DNA of 64,000 bases. Origin: Erythrobacter sp. GTDB taxonomy: Bacteria; Pseudomonadota; Alphaproteobacteria; Sphingomonadales; Sphingomonadaceae. Below the pieces are notes generated by a model. The model made no database searches, was not told where the DNA came from, and worked only from the letters and a program-made list of their open reading frames with translations. Positions 133 through 19,300 of the stretch are shown here, piece after piece; position 1 is the stretch's first letter; each line of letters starts with the position of its first letter. A program made the position numbers and the translations under genes. The DNA is taken from NCBI GenBank assembly GCA_013822125.1, contig PNJY01000001.1:16700-80699 (forward strand). Direction: 5' to 3'.

Positions 133-987
133 TCAATCGGCATTGCAGCTGTCATTTGCCTCTCCGTTAGAGAAGCGGTCGCAGAATGCCAGCTTCATGA
201 GGTGCTCGGTTAGCGCCCGCGCTCCGTTTTCCTTGACCATTTCGCTCCAGCTTTCCCAGCGATCGATCCGTTCTACAAGCCACAGGTAGAAACGGTTGCG
301 TGCATGCTCGTGGCCTACGGGCCATGTCATGGTCCAGAGCGTGCTGCGGACCGGTATCTCATGATTGATATGTAATCCGATCAGCTTGACTGCAGGCTCG
401 GAGGCAATCGTATCGGTGGCGAAGCGATACAGCATGCGCGCAGCCACCTGTTCGCTCCTTTCGACCTGCTCTGCCGTTTCCACCCTTTCAGAGCGACGGG
501 CAACGCTTTGATTGGCGATGATCCAGCTCAATCCAACGGCGTCTTGCGCATCCTTCTGTGTTCGCGTTGCGATCAGCATCTGCAGGACGGCGCGTCCCTC
601 CTGTGTCAGCCTTCCGCCGTGTTGATCAATCAGCCCGGCCGCCTCGAGAAAGGCCTGATAGAAGGCAGAAAGGTGGCGATCGCCAAGGAAGATGTCGAAC
701 TGGCGCTCTTCGTCAGCGACGAAACGGCCGTCTACAATCGCCAGATAGTTTGCGATAAACTCGAGAAGCTCGTCCTTCCAACGCAGATCGGGGAGTCCGA
801 GGCGGCCGATCCAGAACGCGTCTCTCACCGATTCCCATTCCCTTCCATCCTCGTCGATGAGAGGAGCCTGACCCGGGATATCGCCGGCAGAGACCAGCCA
901 ATAACCCCAAGGCAAGGCCGGGTGTCGGTTGTCGCCATAACGCTGATGGTTCTGGAATTTAAAAGCGGAAGAGTGGTACGCCATCAT
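133..987 (-). CDS. hypothetical protein (~284 aa)
   Basis: Long ORF; the ATG at 987 overlaps the TGA of the upstream gene (ATGA coupling) and has a GGGAGA RBS; no family motif recognised. Confidence 0.7.
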   Translation of the reverse strand: MMAYHSSAFKFQNHQRYGDNRHPALPWGYWLVSAGDIPGQAPLIDEDGREWESVRDAFWIGRLGLPDLRWKDELLEFIANYLAIVDGRFVADEERQFDIFLGDRHLSAFYQAFLEAAGLIDQHGGRLTQEGRAVLQMLIATRTQKDAQDAVGLSWIIANQSVARRSERVETAEQVERSEQVAARMLYRFATDTIASEPAVKLIGLHINHEIPVRSTLWTMTWPVGHEHARNRFYLWLVERIDRWESWSEMVKENGARALTEHLMKLAFCDRFSNGEANDSCNAD

Positions 988-1718
988 CCGTCTCCCGTGA
1001 CGTCTGGGGGCGGCAGCAGGCGAAGGGAAGGGGCGGTACTTTCGGACGATCCCTGCCCCGCTGCCAGCATCGCCGTGAGCTGCCTGGCGAGGGCAATGCA
1101 ATTCTCGTAGACGTAGGATTGGTCGCGGTAGGTATCGCCATTGCGGCGATTTGCCCGATCATTTGGCACGAGGTCGCCAGCGTGGTTCGTGTCAAAGCCG
1201 AGCCACCAGAGGTCCTCGTGGAACTCGTCTTCGGTGGTCTGCACGGTCCGATATTGCTGAACGAGCCTGACGCGTGTCACGTGGCAGACCGTGTAGCGTT
1301 CCTCGCGCGGTTTGCCCCAGGCTTTGCGTGCAAACCGGTTGACCTCGCAGGCTTTGCTGTAGGTCACACCGCCATGGACGACTTTCGCAATTGCTACTGG
1401 GATCGCATCGGCCTCGAAACCGAACATGGGGTGGTCGATACCGACACCGACGTAACCCGAGATCGTTCCATCTTCCTGCCTCAGCATGATGCAGCCAAGT
1501 CCGGTCTCCTCATCGACCCAGGCCACCTTGTCGGCTTCGTGGTTCCACGGTCCATCACCTGATGGCCGACGATCCGGATTGCGGTAGAGCTGCTGAGCGG
1601 TAATGCTAACCTCGCCCACCGGGTAGGCAATCGGCACTGCGTTGATGAGCCCCGCAGGCAGGGAGGACTTGACGACACCCCTGGCTCCCTCTGTGCGCTT
1701 GGTTGGTCTCTTTGTCAT
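984..1718 (-). CDS. phage-like conserved hypothetical protein
   Basis: AGGAG RBS before the ATG at 1718; motifs GYVGV..HP, VHGGVTY and WWLGFD..HAGD resemble a family seen in phage/prophage proteins. Confidence 0.7.
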   Translation of the reverse strand: MTKRPTKRTEGARGVVKSSLPAGLINAVPIAYPVGEVSITAQQLYRNPDRRPSGDGPWNHEADKVAWVDEETGLGCIMLRQEDGTISGYVGVGIDHPMFGFEADAIPVAIAKVVHGGVTYSKACEVNRFARKAWGKPREERYTVCHVTRVRLVQQYRTVQTTEDEFHEDLWWLGFDTNHAGDLVPNDRANRRNGDTYRDQSYVYENCIALARQLTAMLAAGQGSSESTAPSLRLLPPPDVTGDG

Positions 1719-1857
1719 GTCCGGTGTTCTCCTTTGCATATTGTTTGCGGGCCGTCGGAGTGGCGCCGCCAATGCTTGACGGATGTCCCTGCCCCACATG
1801 CGCGCTGACCGATGGCAGGCCGTGACCACCACTGACCCGCAAAGAGAGGATTGCCGA

Positions 1858-1878
1858 GGTATACATTAAAGTATACGT
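1858..1878. repeat. 21-bp direct repeat copy 1 (GGTATACATTAAAGTATACGT), internally palindromic
   Basis: Identical to 8751-8771; GTATAC-N6-GTATAC dyad. Confidence 0.9.
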
Positions 1879-1965
1879 CATTCTGCCTCGTTGCAAGTCC
1901 TGATTGCGGGGGTGGGGCCTGCCTCCGTAACTGCGGCCGCCAGTCCCAGGTGTTGCGAGATGGCC

Positions 1966-4900
1966 TCAAGTGCTCTTGCCGCGTGCGATCTTGATGGCGC
2001 GGCTATAGGTGTCATAGCTTGAGCGCAGCGCGGTTTCGGAACGCAACAGGCCGTAATGCTGGCGGATCATGTCTTCACTGGTCTGGAGTGCAAATGCAGC
2101 TTCCTGCACTCTGTCGTTCGACGTCGAGTTGTTGACGATGTCTGACGCTTTGAGAACCCTGTGCACGTAAGGATTCAGGAGCACGACACCTGGAAAGCCA
2201 GTTCGCGTCAGGGGGTTCCACGCGATGTGGCGTGCGCCGAACTTGCGAAAGGCTTCGTACCAGGTGAGTGACGTCATCGCCTTGCCTCTCTTGGTCAGGA
2301 ACGCATTTTCGCATGTCCCATCATCAAGAAGCGGGCGATGGATGAAGAACCATTCATCGAGCAGCTTTGTGAGGAAGGGTTCTGTAATTGTCAGATCGTA
2401 GTCGAGGCGGTGCCCAACAACCCCGAAAAGCCCGCAGTTCTTCCAGTTCTTGAACTTGCGATAGCAAACGCAAATCTTCCACAAGCCATTTTGCTTGAAG
2501 ATCTCCGGTTTGTCGCCCTTGAACTTCAAGTTGACCAGGTTCTTCGGGCGGAAACCCGTGACTATCGAGAGATGGGACATGACGATGTTGCGTATGTCGG
2601 TTGCGAGGAAGCGACCTGACCGCTCATCGCGCACCCGCGATTCAGCCTCGAACAGGAGGCTGAGGTAATTCGCCACCGGCTCCTCGCTTTCGATCAGCGA
2701 TGCGGCTCCCAACATCGCATCGCGGACCGTCGGCGTATCCTCTTCGATAAATTGGGTAATCTGCTCAGCCGCCTCCCGGCTGATTGCAATAAAGGCTCGC
2801 CAGTCGCGCTTCGCGAGATCAACGTCTTCCTGTGACAGCAGTGGTCCGCCGCTGCGACCGCTGAATGCGAGAAGCCCGCTGAAGCGCTCTGCAGATGCGG
2901 TCTGGGCGAGCGGTTCGAGCTTTTCGGCAAGTTCAGGGTGCTGGGTAAGATAGCCGGTCTCGGGATGGGTGAGAGACTTGATATGGTGAGCCACACCTCG
3001 AAGTCGCGACGAGAATAACTCGCCTCTTTTGCCACCAGTCAGTTCCACTTCGCTGAGATGGGCTGCCTCGAATGCGAAGTAACGAACAAAGAGTCCTGGA
3101 ACTACCAACCATACCATGGTCGCCTTGGAGGCATCGAGACCGAGGCCTGAGTTGGGACCATCTGAGCAAGGCGCAACGAGAAATCGCACGATCTTGTCGA
3201 TTTCGCGGCGCTTGATCTCAGTCGTAGTCTCCTCGCGCCAAATTCCGCTTTTCGGTCGCTTCAGTGGAGCAACAAACCTGGCAGTCTTGTAATGAAAATA
3301 CGCACGCAATTCCTCATGCCACGAATCAGGCAGTTCCGCGCCCGGCAAGCGGTAAGCGTCAGAGCGCCCGGCATTGCTGATGCGGGCAAAGTCGGTGCCA
3401 TCTCGTGCCAGGTGCTCGATCTTCGCAACGGCAGCCCTGATCTCCGGTTCTGAAAGGTAGCGAACTTCACGCGGAAGAAGCCGCTGCCTCGAAAAAGAAA
3501 CTTCGTACCAGTACGAGGTGACGGTCCCGGACGAGGCTGGAAGCCAGCCCCTACGCGCCAGCGCACAGAGCTTACCTTGGGGTAGCCCGAAATGCTCTTC
3601 GATCCTGGCCACGACGGGCACCGAATTGATCCCCACTTTCCCACCTGCAACCCAGTTCCTGATCGTTCCCCACGAACAACCCGCGATCTGGGCAAGGCTC
3701 TGGCAGGACAGGCCCTTCGACTTCATCAGCGCCGCGAGCTGTCCTGCGAAACTCGCAGACGGGTCGACCCGGGCGGAAATCTCATCGTAGATCGCCTTGA
3801 TACGATCCAACCGAGCCGAAACATTTCGCCGACTGCTGTCATTGTCGTAGGAGGCCCGCACCGCACTACGAAGCGCTGGAAAGCGCTCGTCTGAAAAGAC
3901 CTCTGCGGCCGGATCCTCAGTCGTGCAACCAGACTGCGCCAGGATTTTGTAGAAGGCGGAGCGGTGTGCTGCGACATGCTGATCCGGATCGGAAGCGCCA
4001 TTAAGTGTCGCTCTGCGGCGCTCACGACTGGTGAGCTCGATCAGAAGGTTTGCCAGAAGGTCAGCGCCATAGTTGTGGCCCGGCACGGCGATGCCGCGGC
4101 GCTTGGCGATCTCCGTGACAGTCCGACGGCATTGCGGGAGATCAGCTACCGAAGAAGCGACCCCTGCAAGCTCGGCCAGCTCGCCCCAGTCAATTGCACC
4201 GTGCCGATGCGAACTGCCGGGGATTTTCGCGCCAGGCACGTCGAACATCGAGACCGTCGCACAAAAAGAAGCGATCTGCCGTTCGCGATCGTCCGGTGTG
4301 GGGCAGGTCCTCACATGCGGGCTATTGGCAAGAATGGCCCGGCCGTCTGCCAGCGCCGCCTGAATAACCTGCTTGAATTTTGCGTTCTGTTTCGCGGCAC
4401 TGACCGTGACGCCGAATGATGCCTTGAACCACTGGAGTGACACACCCTGGCCGTACCGGCCAATCGTCAGCTGAAGGGAGAGGGCCGCGTAAGCGGCCGA
4501 CACGGGATCCTTGAGCCGAACGCCTTGCGACAGGTGGCACGGAAAGGTGACAAACACCTGCAGGACGTTCTCGATAAACGTGCGCGCCTCGGTACCGGGT
4601 GCGACTTCGCGCATGTTGATGTCGCATTGCCGAGTGAGTTCCTCACAACTGATCATGCCGTTGTGGGCGAGAAAAGGCCGCCCGGTGTCGATCTGCTCGA
4701 CTGCGAAGGAAGCGAAACGCGCTACGACCGCGTTCGAGGCGTTACTGGCAGCGCGCCGAGCCTCCTGCAGGGCCGCGGCGTGCTCTTCTTGGGCATTCCA
4801 ACCGCCACGCGGAATGGCGAGCCGGAGATCAGCGCTGCCCCGGAGCGGACGATCGTCGTTGGCAGGCAAGACTAGCGACAATGCTGTCGAGGTCGCAACG

Positions 4901-5025
4901 CTCGTTCCTGTGTTCTCGATTGACCCTGATATCGCAGGATCCTCAGGAGCATCGATGTGTTCGTCCTGTCTTGGAGTATATGTCGCATCGTACCTCATGA
5001 TCATTTCCTTTTGATTGTCTCGCAT
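1966..5025 (-). CDS. large tyrosine recombinase/integrase-family protein with internal XRE-like HTH (1019 aa)
   Basis: C-terminal TGFRPKN (Arg I), NPYVHR (H-x-x-R position) and RQHYG (Tyr); central LAALMKSKGLSCQSLAQIAGCSWGTIRNW HTH. Confidence 0.75.
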   Translation of the reverse strand: MRDNQKEMIMRYDATYTPRQDEHIDAPEDPAISGSIENTGTSVATSTALSLVLPANDDRPLRGSADLRLAIPRGGWNAQEEHAAALQEARRAASNASNAVVARFASFAVEQIDTGRPFLAHNGMISCEELTRQCDINMREVAPGTEARTFIENVLQVFVTFPCHLSQGVRLKDPVSAAYAALSLQLTIGRYGQGVSLQWFKASFGVTVSAAKQNAKFKQVIQAALADGRAILANSPHVRTCPTPDDRERQIASFCATVSMFDVPGAKIPGSSHRHGAIDWGELAELAGVASSVADLPQCRRTVTEIAKRRGIAVPGHNYGADLLANLLIELTSRERRRATLNGASDPDQHVAAHRSAFYKILAQSGCTTEDPAAEVFSDERFPALRSAVRASYDNDSSRRNVSARLDRIKAIYDEISARVDPSASFAGQLAALMKSKGLSCQSLAQIAGCSWGTIRNWVAGGKVGINSVPVVARIEEHFGLPQGKLCALARRGWLPASSGTVTSYWYEVSFSRQRLLPREVRYLSEPEIRAAVAKIEHLARDGTDFARISNAGRSDAYRLPGAELPDSWHEELRAYFHYKTARFVAPLKRPKSGIWREETTTEIKRREIDKIVRFLVAPCSDGPNSGLGLDASKATMVWLVVPGLFVRYFAFEAAHLSEVELTGGKRGELFSSRLRGVAHHIKSLTHPETGYLTQHPELAEKLEPLAQTASAERFSGLLAFSGRSGGPLLSQEDVDLAKRDWRAFIAISREAAEQITQFIEEDTPTVRDAMLGAASLIESEEPVANYLSLLFEAESRVRDERSGRFLATDIRNIVMSHLSIVTGFRPKNLVNLKFKGDKPEIFKQNGLWKICVCYRKFKNWKNCGLFGVVGHRLDYDLTITEPFLTKLLDEWFFIHRPLLDDGTCENAFLTKRGKAMTSLTWYEAFRKFGARHIAWNPLTRTGFPGVVLLNPYVHRVLKASDIVNNSTSNDRVQEAAFALQTSEDMIRQHYGLLRSETALRSSYDTYSRAIKIARGKST

Positions 5026-5150
5026 TCGACCGGAACCGATCGGGTGCGCATATAAAAAGGACAGATCTGAAATTTACAGTCAACAGAAAAATAAAGGAGA
5101 GAGGAAAAGTGAAGAGCTGATACTAAAAAACTAAACACCTTTGAGTCTGC

Positions 5151-5194
5151 CCATCCTGAAAACTACTAGACCGAAACGGTGATTTTCAGGATGG
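5151..5194. promoter_or_regulatory. 12-bp inverted repeat (CCATCCTGAAAA / TTTTCAGGATGG) in the divergent intergenic region
   Basis: Perfect arms at 5151-5162 and 5183-5194, with an inner ACCG-AAA-CGGT mini-hairpin; AT-rich context. Confidence 0.55.
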
Positions 5195-5233
5195 AGTAAA
5201 TTTTACAGAGTAAAGTAAAGAGAAGAGTCAAAA

Positions 5234-5515
5234 ATGCCAATTCAACGTAAAACACCAAGTAACGCTGCTGAATGGAAGAAATTTATGAGGACCTATCTTC
5301 GGGCAATCATGCTGCTTCGCGGATATGACCACAACCAGCTTGCCGAAGCTCTATCCTCAAAATTCGGGATCGAAATGCACTATGATCAGCTGAGAAAATT
5401 GACCCACCGTGGGACCTTCAAGGCCGAATTTTTGATCCAGTGCGTAGTCGCCATGGGCGGCGAGTCGCTCGAAATGCCCCGATTCGAAAGTGATGATTCG
5501 CACCCGAGTCGCTAG
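5234..5515 (+). CDS. DUF6471-like small HTH DNA-binding protein
   Basis: W..(ylraimllrG.d...LaeaL)...RGTFKAEFLIQCVVAMG pattern typical of DUF6471; divergent from the recombinase. Confidence 0.7.
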   Translation: MPIQRKTPSNAAEWKKFMRTYLRAIMLLRGYDHNQLAEALSSKFGIEMHYDQLRKLTHRGTFKAEFLIQCVVAMGGESLEMPRFESDDSHPSR

Positions 5516-6098
5516 ATTCGAGTAGTGGCTCGGTGGTGCGGGCCCAATGAGGACATACGGAGGGAGGAAATATGTGACTGACACCCCGATTTGCTGCGGA
5601 AGCGATGTAAATTCGGGCGATTGGGCAATGAATCATTCCGGAAACTGGTCTAAAGTTGGGCGCCGCTGATAGTTTTGTCGGCCCGTGCGGCTTAACCAAC
5701 TGAAAAAAGAAGCGAAATTACTTCTCGCCAAAAAGGGGCTCGCCGCCGTTGACCACTAGCCCTTTCAACAGTCAATTCGCCCAAGTGAGATAAGCATAAG
5801 TGCTTGTAAAAGAGGATCATTCAGGATCCGCCTAACGATCCTGGCGGCCTCAAGATCGAAGGCATGACATCCAGAACGCGCTATGCGCCCAAGATCCTGT
5901 GAAATCGGTGTGTGAAAATCATAATGAAGATGTGGCTTGCTGAGCATACCGAATGCCAGATTGTACATCTGGAGTTATGAGATTCGATCTCCCTTTCTTA
6001 TAAGGCCGAATGAAACCCCGATTGACATCGTTGCAGCCGAATAAAAAGAGTCGCTGTAAGAAGGTGCGTGTTTTTATCGCGGTGATAACAAAGGAGGT

Positions 6099-6596
6099 TT
6101 GATAATGTTTACCGACGTGAATTTCGAGGCTACGCAGCGCTTTGTGCTGGCGATCGGAATCTTGTTGACCGTTGACGTGACTGGGCTCGGCGTCGGCAAC
6201 CCGAGGGGGGTTGTGTTTACAGTTGCACCGGCTGGCGAGGAGCTTGGATTTGAGAGGGCTGCCGCTAACCAAGGCAAAGACGTTATCGTTCTTACGTTCG
6301 AATTGGGGAAAGAGGAGGAAGGTCCCAAGAATATTGCCGTTTTCGAGGAGCGTAATGGTCAATTACGGGTTTGGCCAAGATGTGCGTTTTGCGAGACAGA
6401 TGACGGCCGACACTTCATTATCGATTATGACGATCGCATTGGCTTTGTTCTGTGGGATGAGAAGATCATGACGGTCAACAATTTGCCGCCGGGCTTTTGC
6501 CTAGAGAATGCTGAGCGCGGTTCTGCATTTCTGAAGGAATTTGCGACCGGCTACATCGGAACGATGCATCGTAACGGTTTTCAGTGCTCCCGATGA
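6099..6596 (+). CDS. hypothetical protein
   Basis: 165-aa ORF with a GGAGG RBS; lower GC; no motif recognised. Confidence 0.6.
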   Translation: MIMFTDVNFEATQRFVLAIGILLTVDVTGLGVGNPRGVVFTVAPAGEELGFERAAANQGKDVIVLTFELGKEEEGPKNIAVFEERNGQLRVWPRCAFCETDDGRHFIIDYDDRIGFVLWDEKIMTVNNLPPGFCLENAERGSAFLKEFATGYIGTMHRNGFQCSR

Positions 6597-8386
6597 GAGC
6601 AGCGAGAAGAGTCGCAATCAATATAAGCTTTCACTCGAAAGAAAAAGTCGGACCCCGCCGAATCGCTAATCGCGAGTAGTGGACTGGTTATCTCGTCCCA
6701 TCGGCATTTATGGTGTTCGCGAAGCTCCTGGTAGCACGCAAGCACATGGTTCGCCGATGCCAGCGCCCAGCAGTGCAGTTCGTCTCTCAGAGCGTCGAGC
6801 TTTTCTTCTGTAAGGCCGGCGCAATTGAAAGCATGAGCACCGAGCGCGGGGGCGGTGTGTATGGCGATCATCCGGGACCCGAGGATGGGCTTCGGAAGCT
6901 TGGTTCGCGTGATCATCTTCGGGCCGAAGTAATCGACAATCCGGATGCGCCCCGCGCGGTCAGCTACGGGCTTTCGAGCGGTGCTGCGTTTGTAGCCGCT
7001 TTTCAGGGCCTGCGCGATCTCGCTGTCACCGTCGACTGATGCAGCGCCGGTTCCATCCATGTCGTCGAGCACGAGCAAGCCATGTGTCTGGTCAAGCAGC
7101 CTGACCATGCCGGCAGCACGAAGTTGTCCGGCCAGTGTGCCATTGATGGCAACTCTCGCAATCGCCTCACCAAGTTCCGACTTGCCGCTACCTGCGGGCC
7201 CGACCGCGAGCAGGATCGGCAGGGCGTCGAAGATCTGGTGGACGTGAGTCATAGCGACGAAGGTTGCTGCAAGTGCATAGGCTCTTTCGTCGGGTAGCCA
7301 GACGCGCGATCGCAGGTGCTTCTCGAGCGTCTCCAGGAGATCGGACAGTTCCCGGAAGGGGCGAGGTCCACGGCGCTTGCGCCACTCGACGAACTGTTGA
7401 ATGGAACCGAACGACCAAGTGCCCGATGTGCTTGCTGCCGGCAGGCCTTTGATGCGCGTGCCGTCCGAGAGAGCCAGAACACGCTCCGAAGATGCTGTCC
7501 CACAGGGTGCTGGAAGGGGTTCGGCACTGAGCAGGGCCCCGTCGGATCTCACGACCAGGGTGCGATAGCGGTGCACGATCTTGCCCAGCCTATCGTCGAC
7601 ATGACGCTGCTCCACCGCGACCGGGTAATAAAGGTTTCCGCAAGCAAAGCCGCCCGAGACGTCGATGGGCGCAGCTTCGAATATCCCGAGATCCACCGGC
7701 TGCCGGCCCGGCTCTTCGGATTCGATGACTAGCTGAATCGGCCGGGCGCTTCCGAGAAGAGTATCCCAGGGCGGGGCCTGAAAGGAGCGGACCATGTCCG
7801 TGAAGCTTTGGAAAGGCGCAGGCGTGCGAATTTGCAGGATTTCGCGTACTGTAAGCGGCGCAATTTCAGCGATGAAATCGGCCGCACCGTCCCCGTCGAT
7901 CAGCAGTACTTGCCCGAACGACGACCAGTGCTGTCCCGAGCGCCATTCCGCAGGCCATTCGCCCCACTGGGAGCGGGAGATGAAGACAACATCCTCATCT
8001 GTCTGTCCATAGGTCTGCCATGCGAGCCACAGATCGAGCACATCGGCTGCGACGACCGCAATCTTTTCGCCATTCCCCAGCCTGTACTCCGTGCAAGGTC
8101 CGGGGCCCCAGCCTTTGGGGTGCTGAGGGTTTGTCGTTATCCCTTGCAGATTGCGGTATGCATATCTCCCGATCGGCAGGCCGTCATCGCTCAGCAAAGG
8201 ATAGGAGAGGGCATCGCGCACCTCCAAGCCGTCATGGCGCGATACATAGGCCTGCTTGAGGCCCAGGTGCAGCCGCTCGATGGTCCCGCCATGGAGGCCG
8301 AGCACCCTGAGCTTGTCCATTGCCGCCTGCGATTGGCGCAGAGCGCGCTTCTGCCGTCCGAGGTTCTCTGGTCCGGCTGACTTCAC
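6581..8386 (-). CDS. putative primase-helicase/replication protein (N-terminal TOPRIM-like region, C-terminal P-loop ATPase)
   Basis: Walker A GPAGSGKS, Walker B LLVLDD and LKSGYKR motif as in phage/satellite primase-associated ATPases; N-terminal YPL...G..IG..YR and AVVAADVLDL. Confidence 0.6.
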   Translation of the reverse strand: MKSAGPENLGRQKRALRQSQAAMDKLRVLGLHGGTIERLHLGLKQAYVSRHDGLEVRDALSYPLLSDDGLPIGRYAYRNLQGITTNPQHPKGWGPGPCTEYRLGNGEKIAVVAADVLDLWLAWQTYGQTDEDVVFISRSQWGEWPAEWRSGQHWSSFGQVLLIDGDGAADFIAEIAPLTVREILQIRTPAPFQSFTDMVRSFQAPPWDTLLGSARPIQLVIESEEPGRQPVDLGIFEAAPIDVSGGFACGNLYYPVAVEQRHVDDRLGKIVHRYRTLVVRSDGALLSAEPLPAPCGTASSERVLALSDGTRIKGLPAASTSGTWSFGSIQQFVEWRKRRGPRPFRELSDLLETLEKHLRSRVWLPDERAYALAATFVAMTHVHQIFDALPILLAVGPAGSGKSELGEAIARVAINGTLAGQLRAAGMVRLLDQTHGLLVLDDMDGTGAASVDGDSEIAQALKSGYKRSTARKPVADRAGRIRIVDYFGPKMITRTKLPKPILGSRMIAIHTAPALGAHAFNCAGLTEEKLDALRDELHCWALASANHVLACYQELREHHKCRWDEITSPLLAISDSAGSDFFFRVKAYIDCDSSRCSHREH

Positions 8387-8730
8387 GAGCGGAATCCGCC
8401 GCTGCGCAGGCTCGATTGCGCCGCCAGGATCATGGCCCGTATGCAGTCAGGGCCGTTTGACAGGAAAGCCAGAGGTGTCTGCCCGAGCTCTTCGCAACGC
8501 AGCCATTGGACGAGTTCATCCTCCCCCTTCAGCGCAACCAGAAGCGCTTCGAGCCGCAGAAGGAGGCGCATGCAGGTTTCCCGATAGGCCTGAGGGCTTC
8601 CCGTCGATCGCTCAGCCGCGGGCTCGTGCGTGAGGAGCCTAACCTCGTCTTCATTGAGCAACAGGCGCCTAGACAGAGCTAGGAACTGCCGCTCGAGGGC
8701 CTCAGCCTCCATCTGGTTTTCAATGATCAT
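8383..8730 (-). CDS. Xre/MbcA/ParS-antitoxin-like small protein
   Basis: C-terminal QWLR.EELGQTPLAFLS resembles the MbcA/ParS toxin-binding domain (WL..p..lgg.tP..ll); GAGGGAGG RBS; GTGA overlap with the primase gene. Confidence 0.5.
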   Translation of the reverse strand: MIIENQMEAEALERQFLALSRRLLLNEDEVRLLTHEPAAERSTGSPQAYRETCMRLLLRLEALLVALKGEDELVQWLRCEELGQTPLAFLSNGPDCIRAMILAAQSSLRSGGFRS

Positions 8731-8750
8731 ATCGAACCCTCCCTCTAGGC

Positions 8751-8771
8751 GGTATACATTAAAGTATACGT
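8751..8771. repeat. 21-bp direct repeat copy 2
   Basis: Identical to 1858-1878; 20 bp upstream of the ATG at 8730. Confidence 0.9.
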
Positions 8772-9149
8772 AAGAGGAAGAGCCATTGTGATTGCGTTGG
8801 GCAAATGGCGCTGGAGTTTATCGAACCTGCGGTTCCCCAGCGTTCCTGAACACAAGCTCGCCGCGCCTTTCGCATCGACGCTGCGATCAGGAGGCAAACT
8901 CGCAATGGGAATGGCTGTCGTGGCTCGGAAGGGCCCACACCTCACCTGAAATTTCCGCACACAAGGATGGCCAATTCAGGCCCGCTCGGGAACTCGATCA
9001 CGATAGTCAAAGCTTAGGGGCTTTGCTCTTAAGAGACTTCGAGCAAATCATCCTCTGTTTCAGAACATACCGATGGCGAAGATAAATTCGCTGTTCACCT
9101 CATCGAACTTCCGGATTGGAAGGCAATTTCCTATAATATATGTCTAGAT

Positions 9150-9791: not shown

Positions 9792-10005
9792 CGGGGGCCG
9801 GCAATGGAGCGGCGCGGGCGGAAACTGATCGTAGCTGCTGTAGCCACTCAGGATCAGGTCACGGTTCAGCAGGAGCGGACTGCAGCACTGCTCCTCGGCC
9901 GGCACCAAGGCATCCATCTCGGCAAGGGAGCTGGTCTGAACCCTCGTCAGACGTCGGAAAAAACAGGTCTGCGTGCGCTCTTCGAAGCGCCGTCACCCTC
10001 AAATC

Positions 10006-10605
10006 ATGAAAGCTGCACATATGCATTACATCGGTTGCGGACATCCAGATGTCCTGTCCTCGCTCGTTTTTGTTCGGACGGCGCCCGAGCTTGAGGAGGG
10101 CTCGCTGGTTTCGAGCCTTGCGCTGTTCACAGTAACCCGCTGCGGTGACAGTGAAGCGAGAATTGATCTTGTCCACACCCGGTTTGACCCCATGCAGGAC
10201 CGGGATGCCATCATTGCAGATGTCTGCCGGGCCATTCCCGACGGAACGCCGTTGCTGGTGCGCCAGCGATATCACGAATATTTGCCGGACTTTTCAGGCG
10301 AACTCCAGGCCGCACTGCCATTGCTCGACAACGGTCGGCTGGCCTGCGCGCTCCCGGGCACCACATTACTGCCACTCTGCAGCAGTGATGAGGAAATCTA
10401 TGCCAGCGGTGAGGCGGCAGGCCTCGATATGCCGGGCCCAGATTCGACGCCGCGCAAGTGCAATCGCCGCGCCCCGCTGGAAACCATGGCTCTTTGGTCA
10501 ATCTACGTCCGCGGCTTTTGTAAGGAGCGTGAGGCACGGGAACTCATCGCAGCCTTCGGTGCGTGGTATCTGCTCGAGCGAGTGAAGCCAATTCCCTCGA
10601 GGTAG
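10006..10605 (+). CDS. hypothetical protein
   Basis: ~200-aa ORF; start uncertain (9973/10006/10021). Confidence 0.6.
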   Translation: MKAAHMHYIGCGHPDVLSSLVFVRTAPELEEGSLVSSLALFTVTRCGDSEARIDLVHTRFDPMQDRDAIIADVCRAIPDGTPLLVRQRYHEYLPDFSGELQAALPLLDNGRLACALPGTTLLPLCSSDEEIYASGEAAGLDMPGPDSTPRKCNRRAPLETMALWSIYVRGFCKEREARELIAAFGAWYLLERVKPIPSR

Positions 10606-11485: not shown

Positions 11486-13684
11486 ATGCCAGAATCAGTT
11501 GATAACCCCGCGGCGGGACCCGCCGATGCGGCGCTGGCGAGCTTCGTCTTGCTGGCGCAGTTTCTTGGTATCCCGGCAGACGCCCAGCAGATCCACCATG
11601 ATCGCGGGCAGGGCGACCAGCCATACTCCTTCGACGACCTGATCCGCGTTGCCAAGAAGCTCGGCCTGATGGCTCGCCGCAAGGAAGCGGCAGTCGCGGA
11701 ACTCTCGAAACTGCCCCTGCCCGCCTTGGTGAAACTGTCGGGCGACGACACGGCGATCCTGCTCAAGATCGACGACAGCGGCGAGACCGGCACGCGTTAC
11801 ATGGTGCTGCGCAGCGATAGCCAGCGCCCCGAGGTGTGGAGCGAGGCCGACGTCTCCGCGCGTTTTGCGCTGAAGAGCGACAAGGTCGAACTGCTGCTGA
11901 TGACAAGCCGCGAGCATATCGCGGGGCAGAAGCGCGCCTTCGATATCTCTTGGTTCATCCCCGCGCTGGTCAAATACCGCAGGCCACTTCGGGACGTGCT
12001 GATCGGCAGTTTCTTCCTTCAGCTGGTCGGCCTTGCCTCGCCGATCTTCTTCCAGCTGGTGATCGACAAGGTGCTGGTCAATCAGACGATCAGCACGCTC
12101 GAGGTGCTGGCGATCGGCCTCACAGCGATCCTGATCTTCGAGACTCTGCTGTCGGCGCTGCGCAACTGGCTGTTCGCGCACACCTCTAACCGGGTCGATG
12201 CCGAGCTGTCGGCAGCGCTGTTCCGGCACCTTGTCGCTCTGCCATTGTCTTACTTTGAGGCGCGTCGTGTGGGCGACAGCGTAGCGCGGGTGCGCGAGCT
12301 CGAGAGCATCCGCAACTTCCTCACCTCCAACGCGGTGACGGTGGTGATCGACCTGTTCTTCACCATCGTCTTTTTCGCCGTGATGTACCTCTATTCACCG
12401 CTTCTGACGCTGATCGTGGCGCTGACGATCCCGGTCTATGTCGCAATCTCGGGGCTCGTCACACCGCCTTTGCGCGCGCGGCTCGACGAGAAGTTCAAGC
12501 GCGGGGCGGAGAACCAGTCCTTCCTCGTCGAAACCGTCACCGGCATCGGCACGCTCAAGGCGATGGCGGTGGAGCCGCGGATGCGCGACCGGTGGGAGAA
12601 GCAGTTCGCCGGCTATATCCAGACGGGATGGGACGTCACCGTGCTGTCCAACTGGGGCAGCCACCTCATCCAGCTGGTCTCGAAGCTGTCGACGGTCGCA
12701 ATCCTGTTCTTTGGCGCCAAAGCGGTCATTGCCGGCGATCTCAGCGTCGGGAGCCTCGTTGCCTTCAACATGCTGTCGGGCCGTGTCGCGCAGCCCATCC
12801 TGCGCCTGTCGCAGCTGTGGCAGGATTTCCAGCAGGTGCGCATTTCGGTCGACCGGCTGGGCGATATCCTCAACTCGCCCGCCGAGCCCGAGCATAATCC
12901 CAACCGCGCCACTCTGCCGCCGATCAAGGGGCGGGTCGAGTTCGACAAGGTCCGCTTCCGCTATCGCCCCGATGCGCCCGAGGCGCTGCGCGGGATCAGC
13001 CTCGACATCGCGCCGGGGGAAATGATCGGGATTGTCGGCCCTTCGGGATCGGGCAAGTCGACGCTGACCAAGCTGGTGCAGCGACTCTACGTGCCCGAAC
13101 AGGGTCGGGTGCTGGTCGACGGGACGGATCTCGCGCTGGTCGATCCCGCATGGCTGCGGCGGCAGGTGGGGGTGGTGCTGCAGGAAAATATCCTGTTCAA
13201 CCGCACCGTGCGCGAAAACATCGCGCTCGCCAATCCGACCCTGCCGATGGACCGGGTGATCGCCGCGGCCGAACTGGCCGGCGCGCACGAATTCATCCTC
13301 GGCCTTGCGCAAGGCTATGACACGGTCATCGAGGAGCGCGGCGCGAACCTTTCGGGCGGGCAGCGCCAGCGCCTTGCCATCGCCCGCGCGCTGATCACCG
13401 ATCCGCGCATCCTGATCCTCGACGAGGCGACCAGCGCCCTCGATGCCGAGAGCGAGGAGATCATCCAGAACAACCTCGCCCGGATCGCGGAAGGGCGCAC
13501 CGTGCTGATCATCGCCCACCGCCTGTCCGCGGTGCGTCCGTGCGACCGGATCATCACCGTCGAGGCGGGCGAGATCACCGAGATCGGCTCGCACCACGAA
13601 CTGCTGCGCGCCGGCGGGCGCTATGCCCAGCTCCACGCCAAGCAGACCGGCTATCGTCCCGATGCCGAGGTGGTGCCGGCATGA
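11486..13684 (+). CDS. hlyB: type I secretion ABC transporter (HlyB family, C39-like N-domain)
   Basis: Walker A GPSGSGKS, LSGGQRQR signature, ILILDEATSALD; ABC transmembrane domain; N-terminal C39-like domain with no catalytic Cys seen. Confidence 0.95.
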   Translation: MPESVDNPAAGPADAALASFVLLAQFLGIPADAQQIHHDRGQGDQPYSFDDLIRVAKKLGLMARRKEAAVAELSKLPLPALVKLSGDDTAILLKIDDSGETGTRYMVLRSDSQRPEVWSEADVSARFALKSDKVELLLMTSREHIAGQKRAFDISWFIPALVKYRRPLRDVLIGSFFLQLVGLASPIFFQLVIDKVLVNQTISTLEVLAIGLTAILIFETLLSALRNWLFAHTSNRVDAELSAALFRHLVALPLSYFEARRVGDSVARVRELESIRNFLTSNAVTVVIDLFFTIVFFAVMYLYSPLLTLIVALTIPVYVAISGLVTPPLRARLDEKFKRGAENQSFLVETVTGIGTLKAMAVEPRMRDRWEKQFAGYIQTGWDVTVLSNWGSHLIQLVSKLSTVAILFFGAKAVIAGDLSVGSLVAFNMLSGRVAQPILRLSQLWQDFQQVRISVDRLGDILNSPAEPEHNPNRATLPPIKGRVEFDKVRFRYRPDAPEALRGISLDIAPGEMIGIVGPSGSGKSTLTKLVQRLYVPEQGRVLVDGTDLALVDPAWLRRQVGVVLQENILFNRTVRENIALANPTLPMDRVIAAAELAGAHEFILGLAQGYDTVIEERGANLSGGQRQRLAIARALITDPRILILDEATSALDAESEEIIQNNLARIAEGRTVLIIAHRLSAVRPCDRIITVEAGEITEIGSHHELLRAGGRYAQLHAKQTGYRPDAEVVPA

Positions 13685-15177
13685 GCCTGCTCGCCGAACG
13701 CTTCCCCACGCTCGCGCGGCATTGGCAGGTGCTGCGCGAGAGCTGGCGCTGGCAGAACGAGGCGGACAAGGCCTTCAAGCCCAAGGCCGAGCATGAATTC
13801 CTGCCCGCCGCGCTCGAAATCATGGAAAAGCCGCCGAGCCCGGGGCTCAGGTGGCTGATGCTGATGACCTGCGGGCTGATGGTGCTGGCGCTGATCTGGG
13901 CGATTATCGGCCGCGTCGATGTGGTCGCGACCGCGGCGGGCAAGACCGTGCCGGGCGAGAACGTCAAGATCGTGCAGCCGATCGAAATCGGTGCGGTGCG
14001 TGCGATCCATGTCCGCAATGGCCAATTCGTGAAGAAGGGCGAGCTGCTGATCGAGCTCGACCCGACGCTCGCCACAGCAGACGAGGCGCAGAGCACCCAG
14101 TCGCTCCGTTCGGCGCAGATCATCAAGGCGCGCAACGATGCCCTCCTTGCCCACCTGCGCGGCGCGCCCGCCCGGTTCGTGGCGCCGGAGAGGACATCCC
14201 CTGATATCGTCGCCACCGAAGAAGCCTTCGTCCGCAATGCGGTCGCGCAATACGAGGCGCAGAGAAGCGCGCTCGTCCAGCAGCGGGCCGAAAGTGAAGC
14301 CGACCTTGCAGCCACGAAGGCCGAAATCGCCAAGCTGGAGGAAGCGCTCCCCTATATCGACAAGCAGCTTAATGCACGGGCAGAGCTAGCAAAGAAGGGC
14401 TTCTTTGCGAACCTCAAGCTCCTCGAGTACGAACAGCTGCGCGCCGAGCATGTTCGCAACATCGAAGTGCAGCGCGCCAACTTCGCGCGGTCCGAAGCTT
14501 CGATCCGGCGGCTCGATGCCGAATTGCTCGCCCTGCGCGCCGGGTTCGGGCGCACCGCGGTGACCGACTTTGCGGAGGCCGAGAGCGAGGCGGGGCTTGC
14601 CAGCGAGCAACTGCGCAAGGCGGCGAGGATGCGGCAATATCAGGAGCTGCGCGCGCCGGTCGATGGCGTGGTGCAGCAGCTGGCCGTGACGACCGTTGGC
14701 GGGATCGTCCAGCCCGCTCAGCCGCTGATGGTGATCGTGCCCTGTTCTGGCGGCGGGACAGACGCGGCGAGCTGCAACGGCGGCGTAACGGTTGAAGCCT
14801 TCGTGCAGAACAAGGATATTGGCTTTGTGAAGGTTGGCCAACGGGTGGCGGTAAAGCTCGAAGCGTTCAACTTCACGGATTACGGCCTAATCGAGGGCAA
14901 GGTCACCACCATCAGCCGCGATGCGATCGACCAGAGCCAGCAGCCAGTGGGCAGCGTGCGCGACGAGAATGGACGCCCGATCCAGCCCGGCCTCGTCTAT
15001 GCCGCGAAGGTCGAGCTTGCCTGCGGGCGGCAAAACTTGGCGCGCCATCCGCTGTGCGACCGGGTGCAGCCCGGCATGGCGGTGCAGGCTGAGATCAAGA
15101 CCGGGCGTCGGCGGATCATCCAGTACCTGCTTTCGCCGATCAGCCAGGCGCTGAGCGAGGCGGGGCGGGAGAAGTGA
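13681..15177 (+). CDS. hlyD: type I secretion periplasmic adaptor (HlyD family)
   Basis: EFLPAALEI, single TM, VRNGQFVKKGELLIELD, APVDGVVQQL, PGM.VQAEIKTGRRRIIQYLLSP; ATGA overlap with hlyB. Confidence 0.95.
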   Translation: MSLLAERFPTLARHWQVLRESWRWQNEADKAFKPKAEHEFLPAALEIMEKPPSPGLRWLMLMTCGLMVLALIWAIIGRVDVVATAAGKTVPGENVKIVQPIEIGAVRAIHVRNGQFVKKGELLIELDPTLATADEAQSTQSLRSAQIIKARNDALLAHLRGAPARFVAPERTSPDIVATEEAFVRNAVAQYEAQRSALVQQRAESEADLAATKAEIAKLEEALPYIDKQLNARAELAKKGFFANLKLLEYEQLRAEHVRNIEVQRANFARSEASIRRLDAELLALRAGFGRTAVTDFAEAESEAGLASEQLRKAARMRQYQELRAPVDGVVQQLAVTTVGGIVQPAQPLMVIVPCSGGGTDAASCNGGVTVEAFVQNKDIGFVKVGQRVAVKLEAFNFTDYGLIEGKVTTISRDAIDQSQQPVGSVRDENGRPIQPGLVYAAKVELACGRQNLARHPLCDRVQPGMAVQAEIKTGRRRIIQYLLSPISQALSEAGREK

Positions 15178-15604
15178 TCAGCTTCTCTGGGGCACCGCAG
15201 GCCGCCAACCAGCTCATAATTGCCTGATAGGTGCCCCTTGCCGTTAGACATTGGATTGTAGCGATAAAGCTCTTGCATCTGTGACCGAAATGCGCAGGAT
15301 GAAGGGTGAATGAGAGGGGCGCGCCGTTGTTACTCATGAATTTGAGCAATTCTGTGTTCTGCGCGAAAGCGCTGCGCCGTAAGCCATTCGCAATCCGGTG
15401 TCGTGACCCTTTAGCTTCTGCCGCATTCGAGCGCTTTCGTGCCCAGCCGACTGTGCGAGTTCCAGTTCTGCATGGTTCACTCTCTGTTCTGGATAGAAAT
15501 ACGAGGCTTCTTCTTCCTGTAGAAGGTGGCTCCAAGCTGCTTCGATTCTTCGCGCAGCGCCGAGGTGCGGCAGCAATCCGCAATTGTTATTCGGAGGCGT
15601 GTCA

Positions 15605-16327
15605 ATGATGCGACGATCGCTCCTTCAGGTACTTGGAACTGGGTTACTTAGCCTTACGTTGCCGGCTTGCTCATCTGCCAAGGACACGGCTCCAGATTAC
15701 CGCTATCGTCTCACGGTCGAGGTCGAGACTCACGAGGGCCTAAGATCGGGGGCGAGCGTGATCGAAGTCCGGCAAAACATCGGCCGATCCGGCAGCAGCC
15801 CGCTCCATTCGCAAATATACCGCCATGCCAAGGGCGAAGCGGTGGCCGTCGATCTGCCGGGAGGCAAGACGCTGTTTGCGCTGTTGCGTTCCGACAGTGA
15901 CGTTGAATGGGCGGCTCAAGTCATGCATCTGCTCGCGCCCCAGATCCAAGGCGAGACCAGCCAAGATTCGTTTGACAATGTGCTGCTGATCAAGGGCAAG
16001 GTCGAAGTTCCCCGCACTTTCCCGCGCGTCGCGTGGATACCAACGCGCTCAGCCTACCCGATGATGGTGGTTTTCGGTGATCCCACCGATCCGACTAGCG
16101 TGACTAAAGTTGATCCAGATGATCTTGCGGCGACGTTTGGCGAGGGAGTGAAACTGAAGCGCGTTACTGTCGAGCTGACCGACGATCCTGTGAGCACCGG
16201 GATTGAGAAGCGGTTGGCCTGGTTGAGCAGCTATCCTGAACCGAGTTTGCGGCCGGGACACGACCTTAACGACTTTAGTTTGCCAGCCACACTTCGGCAC
16301 GGCGACTTTCGGCGAGGACAAAATTAA
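15605..16327 (+). CDS. lipoprotein of unknown function (candidate immunity protein)
   Basis: RR-containing signal peptide with lipobox-like LPAC; GGAGG RBS; TAATG overlap with the giant RTX gene. Confidence 0.75.
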   Translation: MMRRSLLQVLGTGLLSLTLPACSSAKDTAPDYRYRLTVEVETHEGLRSGASVIEVRQNIGRSGSSPLHSQIYRHAKGEAVAVDLPGGKTLFALLRSDSDVEWAAQVMHLLAPQIQGETSQDSFDNVLLIKGKVEVPRTFPRVAWIPTRSAYPMMVVFGDPTDPTSVTKVDPDDLAATFGEGVKLKRVTVELTDDPVSTGIEKRLAWLSSYPEPSLRPGHDLNDFSLPATLRHGDFRRGQN

Positions 16328-19300
16328 TGTTGAGCCCTGACGTCTTCTTATCGCTGCTAGCTCTAGATGCATACAATCGAGGTTACGGGCGTGGCGTATT
16401 CGCCAATGGTAGTGCGAACGATGACAGCGAAGCCGGCCGAAAGATTGGCAACGCGACGATCTTAAACGTCGACTTGCCTGCTGGTTCAGAGGCAGTAGGC
16501 TTTTACGCAATCGCATACGAATTGGACGGTGCAAAAATAATCTCTTACCGTGGAACGAATTTCGAATTCAATTCGCTCAACGAGTTTCTGAGCAGTCCAG
16601 CAATATTGGATATCTACAATGGCTGGGGTATAGGAGGTGGCTACGCTCCGTCTAGTCAGGCTCAATTAGCGATAAATTTTTATGAAAGTGTAGCAGGCGG
16701 TCTGTCCATTTATGATACAAATGGAGGTACAACTACACTTGTCGGCCATTCCCTCGGAGGTGGGCTAGCTGGATTTGTAGGTGCTTTAGGAAAAGTTGAT
16801 ACTTTTGCTTATGACCATATGCCTTTTATGAAGGCAGCCGAGGCGCAGGCTCTTTCGGTCGCACTTTCACGCGCTCTTGATGCTGCAAGAGCGCAGTTTG
16901 ACTCAAGTCTAGGTCTTTCATCGCTAGTGGCACCAGCTTTGGCCGGTCCCGGCAGTCCTCTATATGATGTACTGCAAGCTTTCACTGATGAATTTGTAGA
17001 TCAATGGAGGAGAGTCCGGCCAAGTGCGGAAACAATCAAAGGAATTTACGTTGAGGGAGAGCTTGTTGTCCCGATTCGTGCACTTGATAGTGCTATAAAC
17101 GGGATCGATGGATCGCTTCTAGCTCCTCTTCTTGTCTACTTAAGAGGAGCACTTTCAGCGCTCGACGTTGAAGGCAATTATTCAGAAGACATTGTAGTTA
17201 AAGATCCTGTCAGTAACAGAGGTATCGAGTTCGGCGGCGGCTTTGCTGATCTCGTTGGCCGGCATTCGATATCTCTTCTGACGATTTTGCAGTTCGGTGA
17301 GAAGCAATGGTCGGCTGAGCGCGGGCAAGAAGGATGGAAAAATTCTGCTAAATTTATCTTCGATAAAATCAGTGATGATGGAATTGGCTCTTCAGTAGGA
17401 CTTAGGCAGGGGCAGACGGGAGGGGCGTCTGAAGGCGATCAACTTAGCTCAGTCGTGGCATACTCCGCCATCAATGAAGGCACCCGTCTTTTTGGCGATA
17501 CTGGAATCCGCGCGCTGTTCAACGATGCTGACGACCTCGGACGACTTCTCGGCCGCACGTACAATGTCCTTAGTGAAGAAACCACCAACCTAATTGGGGG
17601 TCTCATCGCTGAGTTCTCGGGTTTGCTTGCGAAAAATCAGGTTCTTTCTGCTTCTTCTCCGCAGGCACTTAGTGGCGTCATTTCAGTCGGCGAGTCCTCG
17701 CCCTATCTAACAATCCGAACAGATCGAGATTATTGGTCGACATTCGGCGATAATCCGACTTTCTTTTCGAGACAGAGTAGCCTTCTGATTTCGAACATTT
17801 TCAAAGAGAATCTTTCTGGGGCGGCGCAATCGGAACTGAGATCCTGGCTGAACGAAGCTGCCTCAAAGAAGGGATTCCAAATCACGCCCCTTACGACGCT
17901 AGCAGAATATATAGATTATGTTTCCTTTACGTTCGCTGGAGATTCCCTGTTTAGGGGCAACGATGATCCGAGTTACAACGGATTCCAATTGTTTGTTGGG
18001 CAAGATGGAAACCAATCAGTCGGTCCTGAAGCAGGCTTTAAGAATACCTTATTGGAAGGTAGCGATATCTTCATCGGGGCAAATGGCCGGAACCATTTGC
18101 TAGGGCTCGGTGGTCATGATGCGCTCATCGGGGGCAGAGGGGTCGACGAACTTGATGGCGGTGCAGGCGACGACCTAATTGTCGGCGGAAGAGGTCCAGA
18201 CACCCTTAAAGGCGGATCCGGCAAAGACATCATCCATGCAGGTGACTTTGACGAAGCTGAGGACAGCGCGGGCGATACTCTCACGGGCGGAACTGGAGAC
18301 GACATATTCTATATTGGAAACGGAGACCGAATTACCGATATTGATCGCGGCGACACGGTTTTCCTCAGAGGCAAGAGGCTCAGTGGAGGGAAGGAGACAA
18401 AACCTGGTTCCCGTATTTTTCTCGATGAGCAGGGTGGCAGGTTCGTTTGGGCGGCGGATGGTACGCTCACATATTCGATCAATCCGACCATTTCGATCGA
18501 GGGCTTTCGCAACGGCTATGGGGGTATCAGGCTGATCGAGGCCGAGGACGATGAGGAAGATGATGATGGTGGCAATGATGACGATGATGGCGGTCGTCCT
18601 GATTTCGATCCGGCTGAGCGCCTTCGCGATCCGCTGATTATCGATCTTGACGGTGATCGCAACGTCATTTCCGGTCGCGACAGCGTCGCTGCCTACTTCG
18701 ATATCGACAACGACGGCTTCTCCGAGCGCGTCTCTTGGGCTCGAGCAGGCGATGGTTTCCTCGTTCGCGATCTCGACGGCAACGGCTTGATCGAAACCGG
18801 TTCGGAGTTGTTCGGCACCGGGGCCGTGGACTCGAGCGCTGCGCAGCTCCAGCCATTCGGCGAAGACGGTTTTGCTGAGCTTGCGTTGCTCGACAGCAAT
18901 TTCGATGGCGCTATCACCGCCGCGGACACGCTGTTCTCGCAGCTCCGGGTTTGGATCGATGCCAATCTTGATGCGAGGACCGACGCTGGCGAGTTGGTAA
19001 CGCTGGAATCCCTGGGCATCGTTTCGATCAGCCTCAGCACTTTCGATTCTGACCACGTTGCCATCACTAACGATGCCTCGGTGATCACACGCGCGTCGAC
19101 CGTCGGCTTCGCAAATGGCTCCACGCGCACGATTTACGATGCCTATCTATCGGTCGACCAGTTTGACGCACGCGAACTCGCGGGCGATGTCACTGTCGAC
19201 GAGCGCATTGCTGATCTTCCCTTCCTGCTTGGGTCCGGCAACGTGTCAGACCTCGACATCGCGATGTCGCGCGACGCTGGTCTTGCCGAGCTGGTGCGCG

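Follow-up and report, generated by a model that had tools for sequence, protein, structure and literature searches.

A conserved GTATAC palindrome, a candidate shared operator, upstream of two operons in an Erythrobacter gene cluster

The repeat and the genes around it

The window analysed here is a stretch of 64,000 nucleotides (nt) of Erythrobacter sp. (contig PNJY01000001.1), and our subject is a 21-bp repeat within it, GGTATACATTAAAGTATACGT, that occurs exactly twice on the plus strand as two copies in direct orientation, 6.9 kb apart (copies 1 and 2 in Table 1). Each copy carries a GTATAC-N6-GTATAC dyad and lies upstream of an operon on the minus strand. Copy 1 lies 88 nt past the stop (1966) of a gene for a 1,019-amino-acid (aa) protein and 140 nt before the ATG (1718) of a 244-aa gene, and copy 2 lies 20 nt before the ATG (8730) of a 115-aa gene that is followed by a 601-aa gene. 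An earlier reading of this DNA (the original prediction) had described the same identical repeat, dyad and distances, and exact matching of the window agrees with it. It had left two alternatives for the function of the repeat, namely: attL/attR sites of an excisable element, or an operator at which one repressor co-regulates two operons. Our results favour the operator: the two copies are probably a palindromic cis-regulatory operator shared by two promoters.

Table 1. Features of the window in and around the repeats.
Feature	Position	Strand	Remarks
~284-aa protein	133..987	-	partner of the 244-aa protein; start overlaps upstream stop (ATGA)
244-aa protein	984..1718	-	phrog_2164 (E 2e-21); invariant His and Cys; ribosome-binding site (RBS) AAAGGAG before the ATG
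Palindrome copy 1	1858..1878	-	core 1859-1876; ACGTATACTTTAATGTATACC on gene strand
-35-like hexamer CTTGCA	1892..1897	-	putative; 16 nt before TATACT in the left half-site of copy 1
1,019-aa protein	1966..5025	-	central XRE-type helix-turn-helix (HTH; weak HTH_31 match); C-terminal tyrosine-recombinase-like domain
Second conserved inverted repeat	5151..5194	.	CCATCCTGAAAA-N20-TTTTCAGGATGG; between DUF6471 and 1,019-aa genes, divergent promoter region
93-aa DUF6471 protein, HTH-like	5234..5515	+	PF20075 (E 8e-14); divergent from the 1,019-aa gene
163-aa protein	6105..6596	+	convergent with the 601-aa gene; variable cluster member
601-aa P-loop nucleoside triphosphatase (NTPase)	6581..8386	-	Walker A GPAGSGKS; Walker B LLVLDDMD
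115-aa protein	8383..8730	-	first gene of the operon behind copy 2; RBS GAGGGAGGG; all-helical
Palindrome copy 2	8751..8771	-	core 8752-8769
-35-like hexamer CTTCCT	8775..8780	-	putative; 16-17 nt before the right half-site of copy 2 (then the -10)

The genes of this locus carry little annotation, and searches of nine local proteins against Pfam, NCBIfam, PADLOC and PHROGs returned almost nothing. For the 115-aa protein, a search of 5.8 billion proteins found one relative only; four orthologues give no Pfam match at E <=10, and there is no profile match in the PDB. Its AF2 model (pLDDT 58) is too poor to use, and Foldseek gave no fold match. By BLASTP it is similar (E 1e-6 and 1e-5) to two proteins of a distant locus (L300) that have weak matches to PF09722 (Xre_MbcA_ParS_C). 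A DUF2384 antitoxin had been suspected by eye, which hidden Markov model searches did not bear out. The start of the 601-aa gene overlaps the stop of the 115-aa gene, which suggests translational coupling. The N-terminus of the 601-aa protein is conserved in L161 and L300; the protein has no Pfam, NCBIfam, PADLOC or PHROG match, and its PDB matches are at the P-loop level only.

A profile search with the 1,019-aa protein returned 235 relatives, so that its family counts at least 235 large proteins (~600-1,260 aa). In an alignment of 40 sequences of this family, R826, K859, R956 and Y991 are invariant (consensus GPHAxRxI...HYGR); at the position of the His of H-x-x-R, the window protein carries a Tyr (Y953). 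Its HTH segment spans about residues 415-495 and its C-terminal domain about residues 720-1019. Pfam Phage_integrase (PF00589) is matched by 12 of the 40 members, and the family profile matches XerD (E 8e-9), XerA and, with its central domain, XRE HTH structures. The window protein itself has no direct Pfam integrase match, and its AF2 model (pLDDT 44) is too poor to check the fold. The gene beside copy 1, which had originally been called a recombinase, would be one in kind, as judged by the family profile and the four invariant residues. The family, an HTH combined with a divergent tyrosine-recombinase-like domain, appears to be uncharacterised.

Among the other genes, the DUF6471 gene encodes a protein with weak partial PADLOC matches (E ~1e-3) to the candidate defence proteins PDC-S23 and PDC-S05; in the literature searched we found no mention of DUF6471 or of the 18-mer described below. 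The 163-aa gene has a homologue in L300 (E 4e-14) and is present in L133, and the 244-aa protein has 132 relatives in Sphingomonadales. The window contains no tRNA and has no plasmid match by megablast, and viral relatives of the 601-aa and 1,019-aa proteins were not found.

The 21-mer has no third copy in the window at up to three mismatches, and none of 100 shuffles contained any match. A search for GTATAC-N6-GTATAC at up to two mismatches likewise returns the two sites only, and the composition of the window leads one to expect ~9e-4 identical 21-mer pairs. All four GTATAC hexamers of the window lie within the two copies; that count is not itself unusual, with 1.7-3.5 expected under Markov models, and avoidance of GTATAC as a restriction site was rejected on the same numbers. 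The identity between the copies ends at 21 nt, and the portion that is kept in other lineages is the inner 18 nt (the core in Table 1). Read on the minus strand, this 18-bp core is a near-perfect continuous palindrome, GTATACTTT/AATGTATAC, and its form on the gene strand is GTATAC-TTTAAT-GTATAC, with half-sites 12 bp apart from centre to centre.

Conservation of the palindrome at the two operons

At copy 2, five lineages retain the core at a distance of 18-23 nt from the orthologous start codon downstream, while the neighbouring intergenic DNA has diverged. These lineages are the window with L123, L133, Qipengyuania aestuarii (L161/L217/L301), L215/L216 and L298. In L133 (87% aa identity), the core is kept despite an adjacent deletion of ~120 nt. 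Copy 2 reads GTATACTTTAAAGTATCT in Q. aestuarii GH1 (53% aa identity) and GCATACTTTAAAGTATAC in L215/L216 (50% aa identity). In L298, whose cluster stands at 41% identity as measured on the 1,019-aa orthologue, it reads TGTATACTAggTAGTATACA: the half-sites are kept and the spacer is altered, which is the usual pattern of a dimer reading two half-sites. An alignment of the upstream regions of five sequences from four lineages leaves as invariant blocks CTT, G-ATACTTTAA-GTAT, the RBS and the ATG, together with a few scattered single bases. Conservation upstream of orthologous genes had been put forward in the original prediction as a check on the operator alternative, and it is borne out before the 115-aa gene in all five lineages.

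From this comparison, the site of copy 2 is predicted to be the ancestral position of the palindrome. Distant relatives (L278, L294) carry a perfect 18-bp palindrome, GTATACTTTAAAGTATAC, and the L298 site is a 9+2+9 palindrome. The ancestral element is accordingly reconstructed as a perfect palindrome, GTATACTTT/AAAGTATAC, with half-sites that would survive changes in the spacer. In the clade of the window, both copies share a single A-to-T change (TTTAAT), which points the same way with respect to the gene that follows; L133 and L297 agree in this orientation.

Copy 1 is restricted to the clade of the window and is absent at the same position in L161/L217, L215 and L298. Near-identical metagenome contigs hold both copies. 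Within the clade, the core of copy 1 is conserved in the midst of substitutions. In L123 it reads GCGTATACTTTAATGTATACGC, with both flanks unlike those of the window, some eight more substitutions nearby and the core unchanged; in L297 (77% nt identity) the core is unchanged inside a diverged leader; and in run X26 (~93% identity) there are changes at 1855, 1858, 1877 and 1884 and none within 1859-1876.

The 244-aa gene and its partner (the 244/287 pair) form a widespread two-gene module of Sphingomonadales, which is seen at 79 of 80 related loci, the other one ending inside the 244-aa gene. The palindrome motif is found at none of the 80 loci of this module in other Sphingomonadales, and we thus assign the motif to the 115-aa/601-aa promoter and not to the 244/287 module. 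The module is usually preceded by a gene for an RNase T-like exonuclease. The full cluster, comprising the 115-aa, 601-aa, DUF6471, 1,019-aa, 244-like and 287-like genes, is present in Q. aestuarii, L215/L216, L214, L301 and L298. In these clusters ~55-90 palindrome-free nt separate the 244-like gene from the 1,019-aa gene or, in L298, from an inserted 195-aa gene ahead of it. The 244-aa protein of the window has 66-71% identity to the Porphyrobacter/Qipengyuania type, as opposed to 46% to the type of the Q. aestuarii cluster; the 601-aa and 1,019-aa proteins have 60-67% identity to their Q. aestuarii orthologues. These comparisons are most simply read as the replacement, in the clade of the window, of the original 244/287 module by a xenologous one, which then gained its own promoter with a copy of the operator. 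At loci of the module (L134-L213), a homologue of the 210-aa gene of the window (9973-10605) sometimes follows, and at L141, the sole locus examined in this respect, a YobI-like NTPase gene adjoins. The 244/287 pair may be a defence or mobile-element module.

Promoter-like hexamers accompany both copies. At copy 2, the right half-site would serve as the -10 for the CTTCCT hexamer, in place of which relatives show CTTGCC or CTTGCG; the CTT is one of the invariant blocks of the five-sequence alignment and lies 5-6 nt upstream of the palindrome. A consensus scan proposes an alternative at this copy, ATCACA-18-TATACT (8792-8763), which also overlaps the palindrome. At copy 1 the putative -10 is in the left half-site, and the TTGC of the -35-like hexamer is kept in L123 and L297.

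The second inverted repeat, in the divergent promoter region of the DUF6471 and 1,019-aa genes, is kept in every lineage examined (L297, L217, L215, L298 and L300), its L300 version having a shorter spacer and a third arm. Since two distinct elements are conserved, at least two DNA-binding specificities are implied, and the HTH proteins together with this second, putative operator point to a small regulatory circuit. The sequences AAATTTACAG (at 5070) and AAATTTTACAG (at 5198) are found near this element.

A probable shared operator and its alternatives

The reading of the palindrome as an operator draws on its dyad symmetry, the 12-bp spacing, the survival of the half-sites when the spacer changes, and the fixed position before the RBS, over -10- and -35-like hexamers. 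In the mechanism that we propose, each copy would overlap the core promoter of one minus-strand operon, and copy 2, as the ancestral site, would control the 115-aa/601-aa operon. In the clade of the window, copy 1 would have been added, with a xenologous 244/287 module placed behind the 1,019-aa gene under its own promoter and with a leader of ~130 nt. Through the added palindrome, this module would come to be controlled together with the 115-aa/601-aa operon: one dimeric DNA-binding protein could occupy both sites and block RNA polymerase, so that both operons would be switched together. The operator alternative of the original prediction is thus supported by position, by dyad symmetry and by a phylogenetic footprint in several lineages.

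Of the candidates for binding the palindrome, the HTH-like DUF6471 protein ranks first and is quite possibly the right one. Autoregulation by the 115-aa protein and binding by the HTH of the 1,019-aa protein are each unlikely, to a similar degree, and a host factor is slightly more so. DUF6471 is present in every cluster that carries the palindrome. L300, which lacks DUF6471 and the GTATAC dyad but has the 1,019-aa gene and the 5151-5194 element, gives a single-case pointer that DUF6471 may read the dyad and the 1,019-aa protein the other element.

Several observations weigh against this account. The promoter hexamers are weak, and those of copy 1 failed a simple consensus scan, which placed a -10 in the palindrome at copy 2 only. 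The link to DUF6471 comes from one locus (L300) that is without both gene and site, and at L278 the same palindrome occurs where there is no DUF6471. In the 115-aa protein, neither profile searches nor AF2/Foldseek could detect a DNA-binding domain. In addition, the 1,019-aa protein beside copy 1 has an apparently intact tyrosine-recombinase active site, and a recombination site would also fit arms that are conserved around a spacer which varies between lineages yet is the same in both copies of one genome.

The last two points lead to the alternative in which the dyads are sites for the 1,019-aa protein, the direct copies permitting excision and re-insertion of the 6.9-kb segment and the site having some other recombination or topological role in relatives with a single copy. 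We regard this as improbable. It would suit the four invariant residues and the XerD match of the 1,019-aa family, the direct orientation of the copies, and the finding that the 210-aa gene, which lies on the right of the segment, comes straight after the 244/287 pair in L134 and L135. It would also suit the GTATAC arms, which are kept across lineages while the 6-nt spacer varies (TTTAAT, TTTAAA, TAGGTA), and the identity of the spacer in the two copies of one genome, as strand exchange would require. The conserved arms measure just 6-7 nt, however, and their flanks are common neither to both copies nor to the lineages. Relatives with the same gene order have one copy only within 10 kb on either side, as found in L161/L217, L215/L216, L298 and L301 (core at <=5 mismatches; half-sites at <=1 mismatch with spacers of 4-8 nt). 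The 244/287 module stays joined to the 1,019-aa gene where there is no second copy, so that the repeats delimit no unit, and in Q. aestuarii, L215 and L298 the conserved gene cluster continues past both repeats. Excision would leave the constant distance of the palindrome to the RBS and start codon unexplained, and in two relatives comM is the insertion site of the surrounding island, with a large serine recombinase next to it. Even less probable is the more elaborate version of this alternative, in which the GTATAC dyads are working sites of the 1,019-aa protein and the 6.9-kb block (recombinase, DUF6471 and NTPase operon) is a recombinase-gated cassette or switch; if true, such a cassette would sit in a previously undescribed multi-gene system with defence-island-like surroundings.

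Natural variants of the locus also break elsewhere, and the breakpoints of the structural variants in metagenomes lie 83-153 nt from the repeats. In a drinking-water strain (run X14, flanks at ~99% identity), 1706-8877 (7.2 kb) is missing, with the breakpoints (1705/8878) 153 and 107 nt outside the repeats. The ends of its foreign replacement DNA (TGGACCGGCGTGCAAAAGGGACCCC... and an imperfect reverse complement) are inverted repeats, and the start of the 244-aa gene is lost, which marks it as a deletion derivative and not an empty site. A 15-nt near-repeat (1690-1704/9501-9515) that ends next to one of these breakpoints mismatches the other and was treated as coincidence. In a marine strain (runs X3, X4 and X6; L127, L129, L132, L219 and L220), the assembly puts 1961-8645 on a contig of its own, the ends of which are foreign. 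One insertion lies at 1961-1963, 3 nt past the 1,019-aa stop, and the other, at 8639-8645 inside the 115-aa gene, is like an insertion sequence (IS) and resembles IS21, with imperfect terminal inverted repeats and internal repeats; the 601-aa gene looks intact. The 3- and 7-nt overlaps at these sites look like target-site duplications. Internal deletions in L124 (SRR25400210), at 3770/4181 in the 1,019-aa gene and at 7202/7998 in the 601-aa gene, may be gene decay or assembly error. No contig joining 1878 to 8772 was found in 16 metagenome runs, as seen in assembled contigs, which drop rare forms. Taken together, the single-copy syntenic relatives, the cluster genes beyond both repeats, four variants that break elsewhere and the missing joint leave the attL/attR alternative of the original prediction unsupported.

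The palindrome might also be a merely duplicated core promoter with TATAC-type -10s and no dedicated regulator, its dyad being incidental as GTATAC is self-complementary. There is a TATA-like -10 (TATACT) in each half-site, the -35-like hexamers stand at workable distances, and AT-rich promoter cores are commonly conserved. Such a promoter would not account for the conservation of both half-sites and their exact 12-bp spacing, though only one half-site can be the -10. The register differs too, the -10 being the right half-site at the 115-aa gene versus the left one at the 244-aa gene, and the symmetry reaches further than a -10 would require (9+9 in the perfect palindrome, 9+2+9 in L298); we rate this reading slightly below that of the recombination site. 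An RNA hairpin in both 5' leaders, for instance a processing or translational control element, is very improbable. With an upstream transcription start, both leaders would indeed contain a 6-bp stem with a 6-nt loop, but the fold is no better than that of shuffled sequences (z 0.07 for the 115-aa leader and -1.4 for the 244-aa leader), Rfam has no family match, and the GTATCT and GCATAC changes in Q. aestuarii and L215 weaken the stem and are uncompensated. Finally, nothing speaks for a chance coincidence of the two copies except that short AT-rich palindromes arise randomly in very large databases; the low expected number of pairs, the empty shuffles and the independent conservation of each copy in related lineages mean that chance is effectively refuted already.

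Relation to known systems and occurrence beyond the window

Palindromic operators that recur at two promoters are nothing unusual in themselves, and the closest parallels to the proposed one are operators of small XRE/Cro-type repressors, such as the C-boxes of the restriction-modification controller proteins C.AhdI and C.BclI and the operators of phage Cro/CI. Like the palindrome, these are short dyads with half-sites about one helical turn apart. They lie over the -35 and -10, are read by an HTH dimer encoded by the element itself and are reused at more than one promoter, as would be the case here if the predicted promoters and binding hold. The HTH of the 1,019-aa family also matches the C.BclI and C.AhdI structures at the level of sequence profiles. 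None of the proteins that may bind here (DUF6471, the 115-aa protein or, through its HTH, the 1,019-aa protein) belongs to the family of the controller proteins. To our knowledge, the GTATAC half-site differs from known C-boxes.

The 115-aa/601-aa operon resembles autoregulated type II toxin-antitoxin operons with Xre/MbcA/ParS antitoxins (PF09722 C-terminal, toxin-binding domain preceded by an HTH) in its small first gene, its larger and apparently coupled second gene and a palindrome directly before the RBS. A transitive BLASTP similarity (E 1e-6) also links the 115-aa protein to the L300 proteins that match PF09722 weakly. Unlike these antitoxins, it has neither a PF09722 nor an HTH match at E 10, and its partner is a 601-aa P-loop NTPase and not a RES or ART toxin. 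The marine strain, with an interrupted 115-aa gene beside a seemingly intact 601-aa gene, is also not what one would expect of an essential antitoxin. With the core sites of tyrosine recombinases (dif, loxP, attP/attB) the repeats share inverted arms, a 6-nt spacer, direct copies and an adjoining recombinase-like gene. The core arms of tyrosine recombinases are usually 11-13 nt long. The repeats differ from such cores in their arms of 6-7 nt, in the single copy of syntenic relatives, in not standing at borders between present and absent DNA, and in the lack of a recombination product in contigs. Some transcriptional regulators of defence islands, for example those of the BrxR and CapH types, recognise inverted repeats ahead of the systems that they regulate; the related clusters resemble these in carrying conserved putative operators at their promoters and in their defence-island-like surroundings. 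The cluster proteins match no PADLOC model, save for the weak partial DUF6471 matches. A defence function of the cluster is a guess from its context.

The value of the palindrome is that it opens a way into a rare and almost unannotated gene cluster, which was found in just one of the ~185,000 species-representative genomes searched and in a handful of metagenome contigs. Both putative operators, GTATAC-N6-GTATAC and the second inverted repeat, would be direct and cheap entry points to the switching of the cluster and to the role of DUF6471. The case would also illustrate how the copying of an operator wires a newly acquired module into an existing circuit.

The perfect 18-mer occurs in two further Erythrobacteraceae genomes (62% G+C), L278 (Qipengyuania sp. 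XHP0211, 5193-5251) and L294 (Alg239-R51), where ~1e-3 chance matches would be expected by a hand estimate. At both loci a CTTGACA -35 stands on one side of it and the ATG of a 209-aa HATPase-like gene on the other, with a 96-aa HTH_31 gene immediately ahead; none of the cluster genes of the window are nearby. The same 18-mer precedes a vapB-vapC pair in a Rhodoferax metagenome-assembled genome (L226). Apart from the two Erythrobacteraceae loci and this vapBC promoter, a scan of genomes for the exact 18-mer gave mostly noise from AT-rich genomes, and a genome-wide scan with a degenerate 15-base pattern gave chance matches only, in all phyla. In L302 (905-935), a different gene stands before a distant relative of the 601-aa gene (46% identity), and the RBS of that different gene has a perfect 16-bp palindrome, TATGCACATGTGCATA, immediately upstream. 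We count this different palindrome, in the equivalent place of the same architecture, in favour of the operator, and likewise the 18-mer at the two Erythrobacteraceae loci.

The surroundings of the cluster vary among relatives. In L215 (1811-4115) and in L217 of Q. aestuarii (4107-6537), the island lies in a truncated comM (ChlI/Mg-chelatase N-terminus) beside the large serine recombinase, with Abi_C, DUF4236, Excalibur and DUF4011 helicase genes downstream. Around the L298 cluster one finds McrBC, a D12 methyltransferase, PLD, patatin and a trypsin-like protease. The window itself contains a type I secretion set at 11486-30762, made up of a 732-aa ABC transporter and a 498/545-aa HlyD/AprE-type adaptor; next in the same interval comes a repeat protein of 4,811 aa, in which HemolysinCabind, cadherin-like and Big_9 domains occur.

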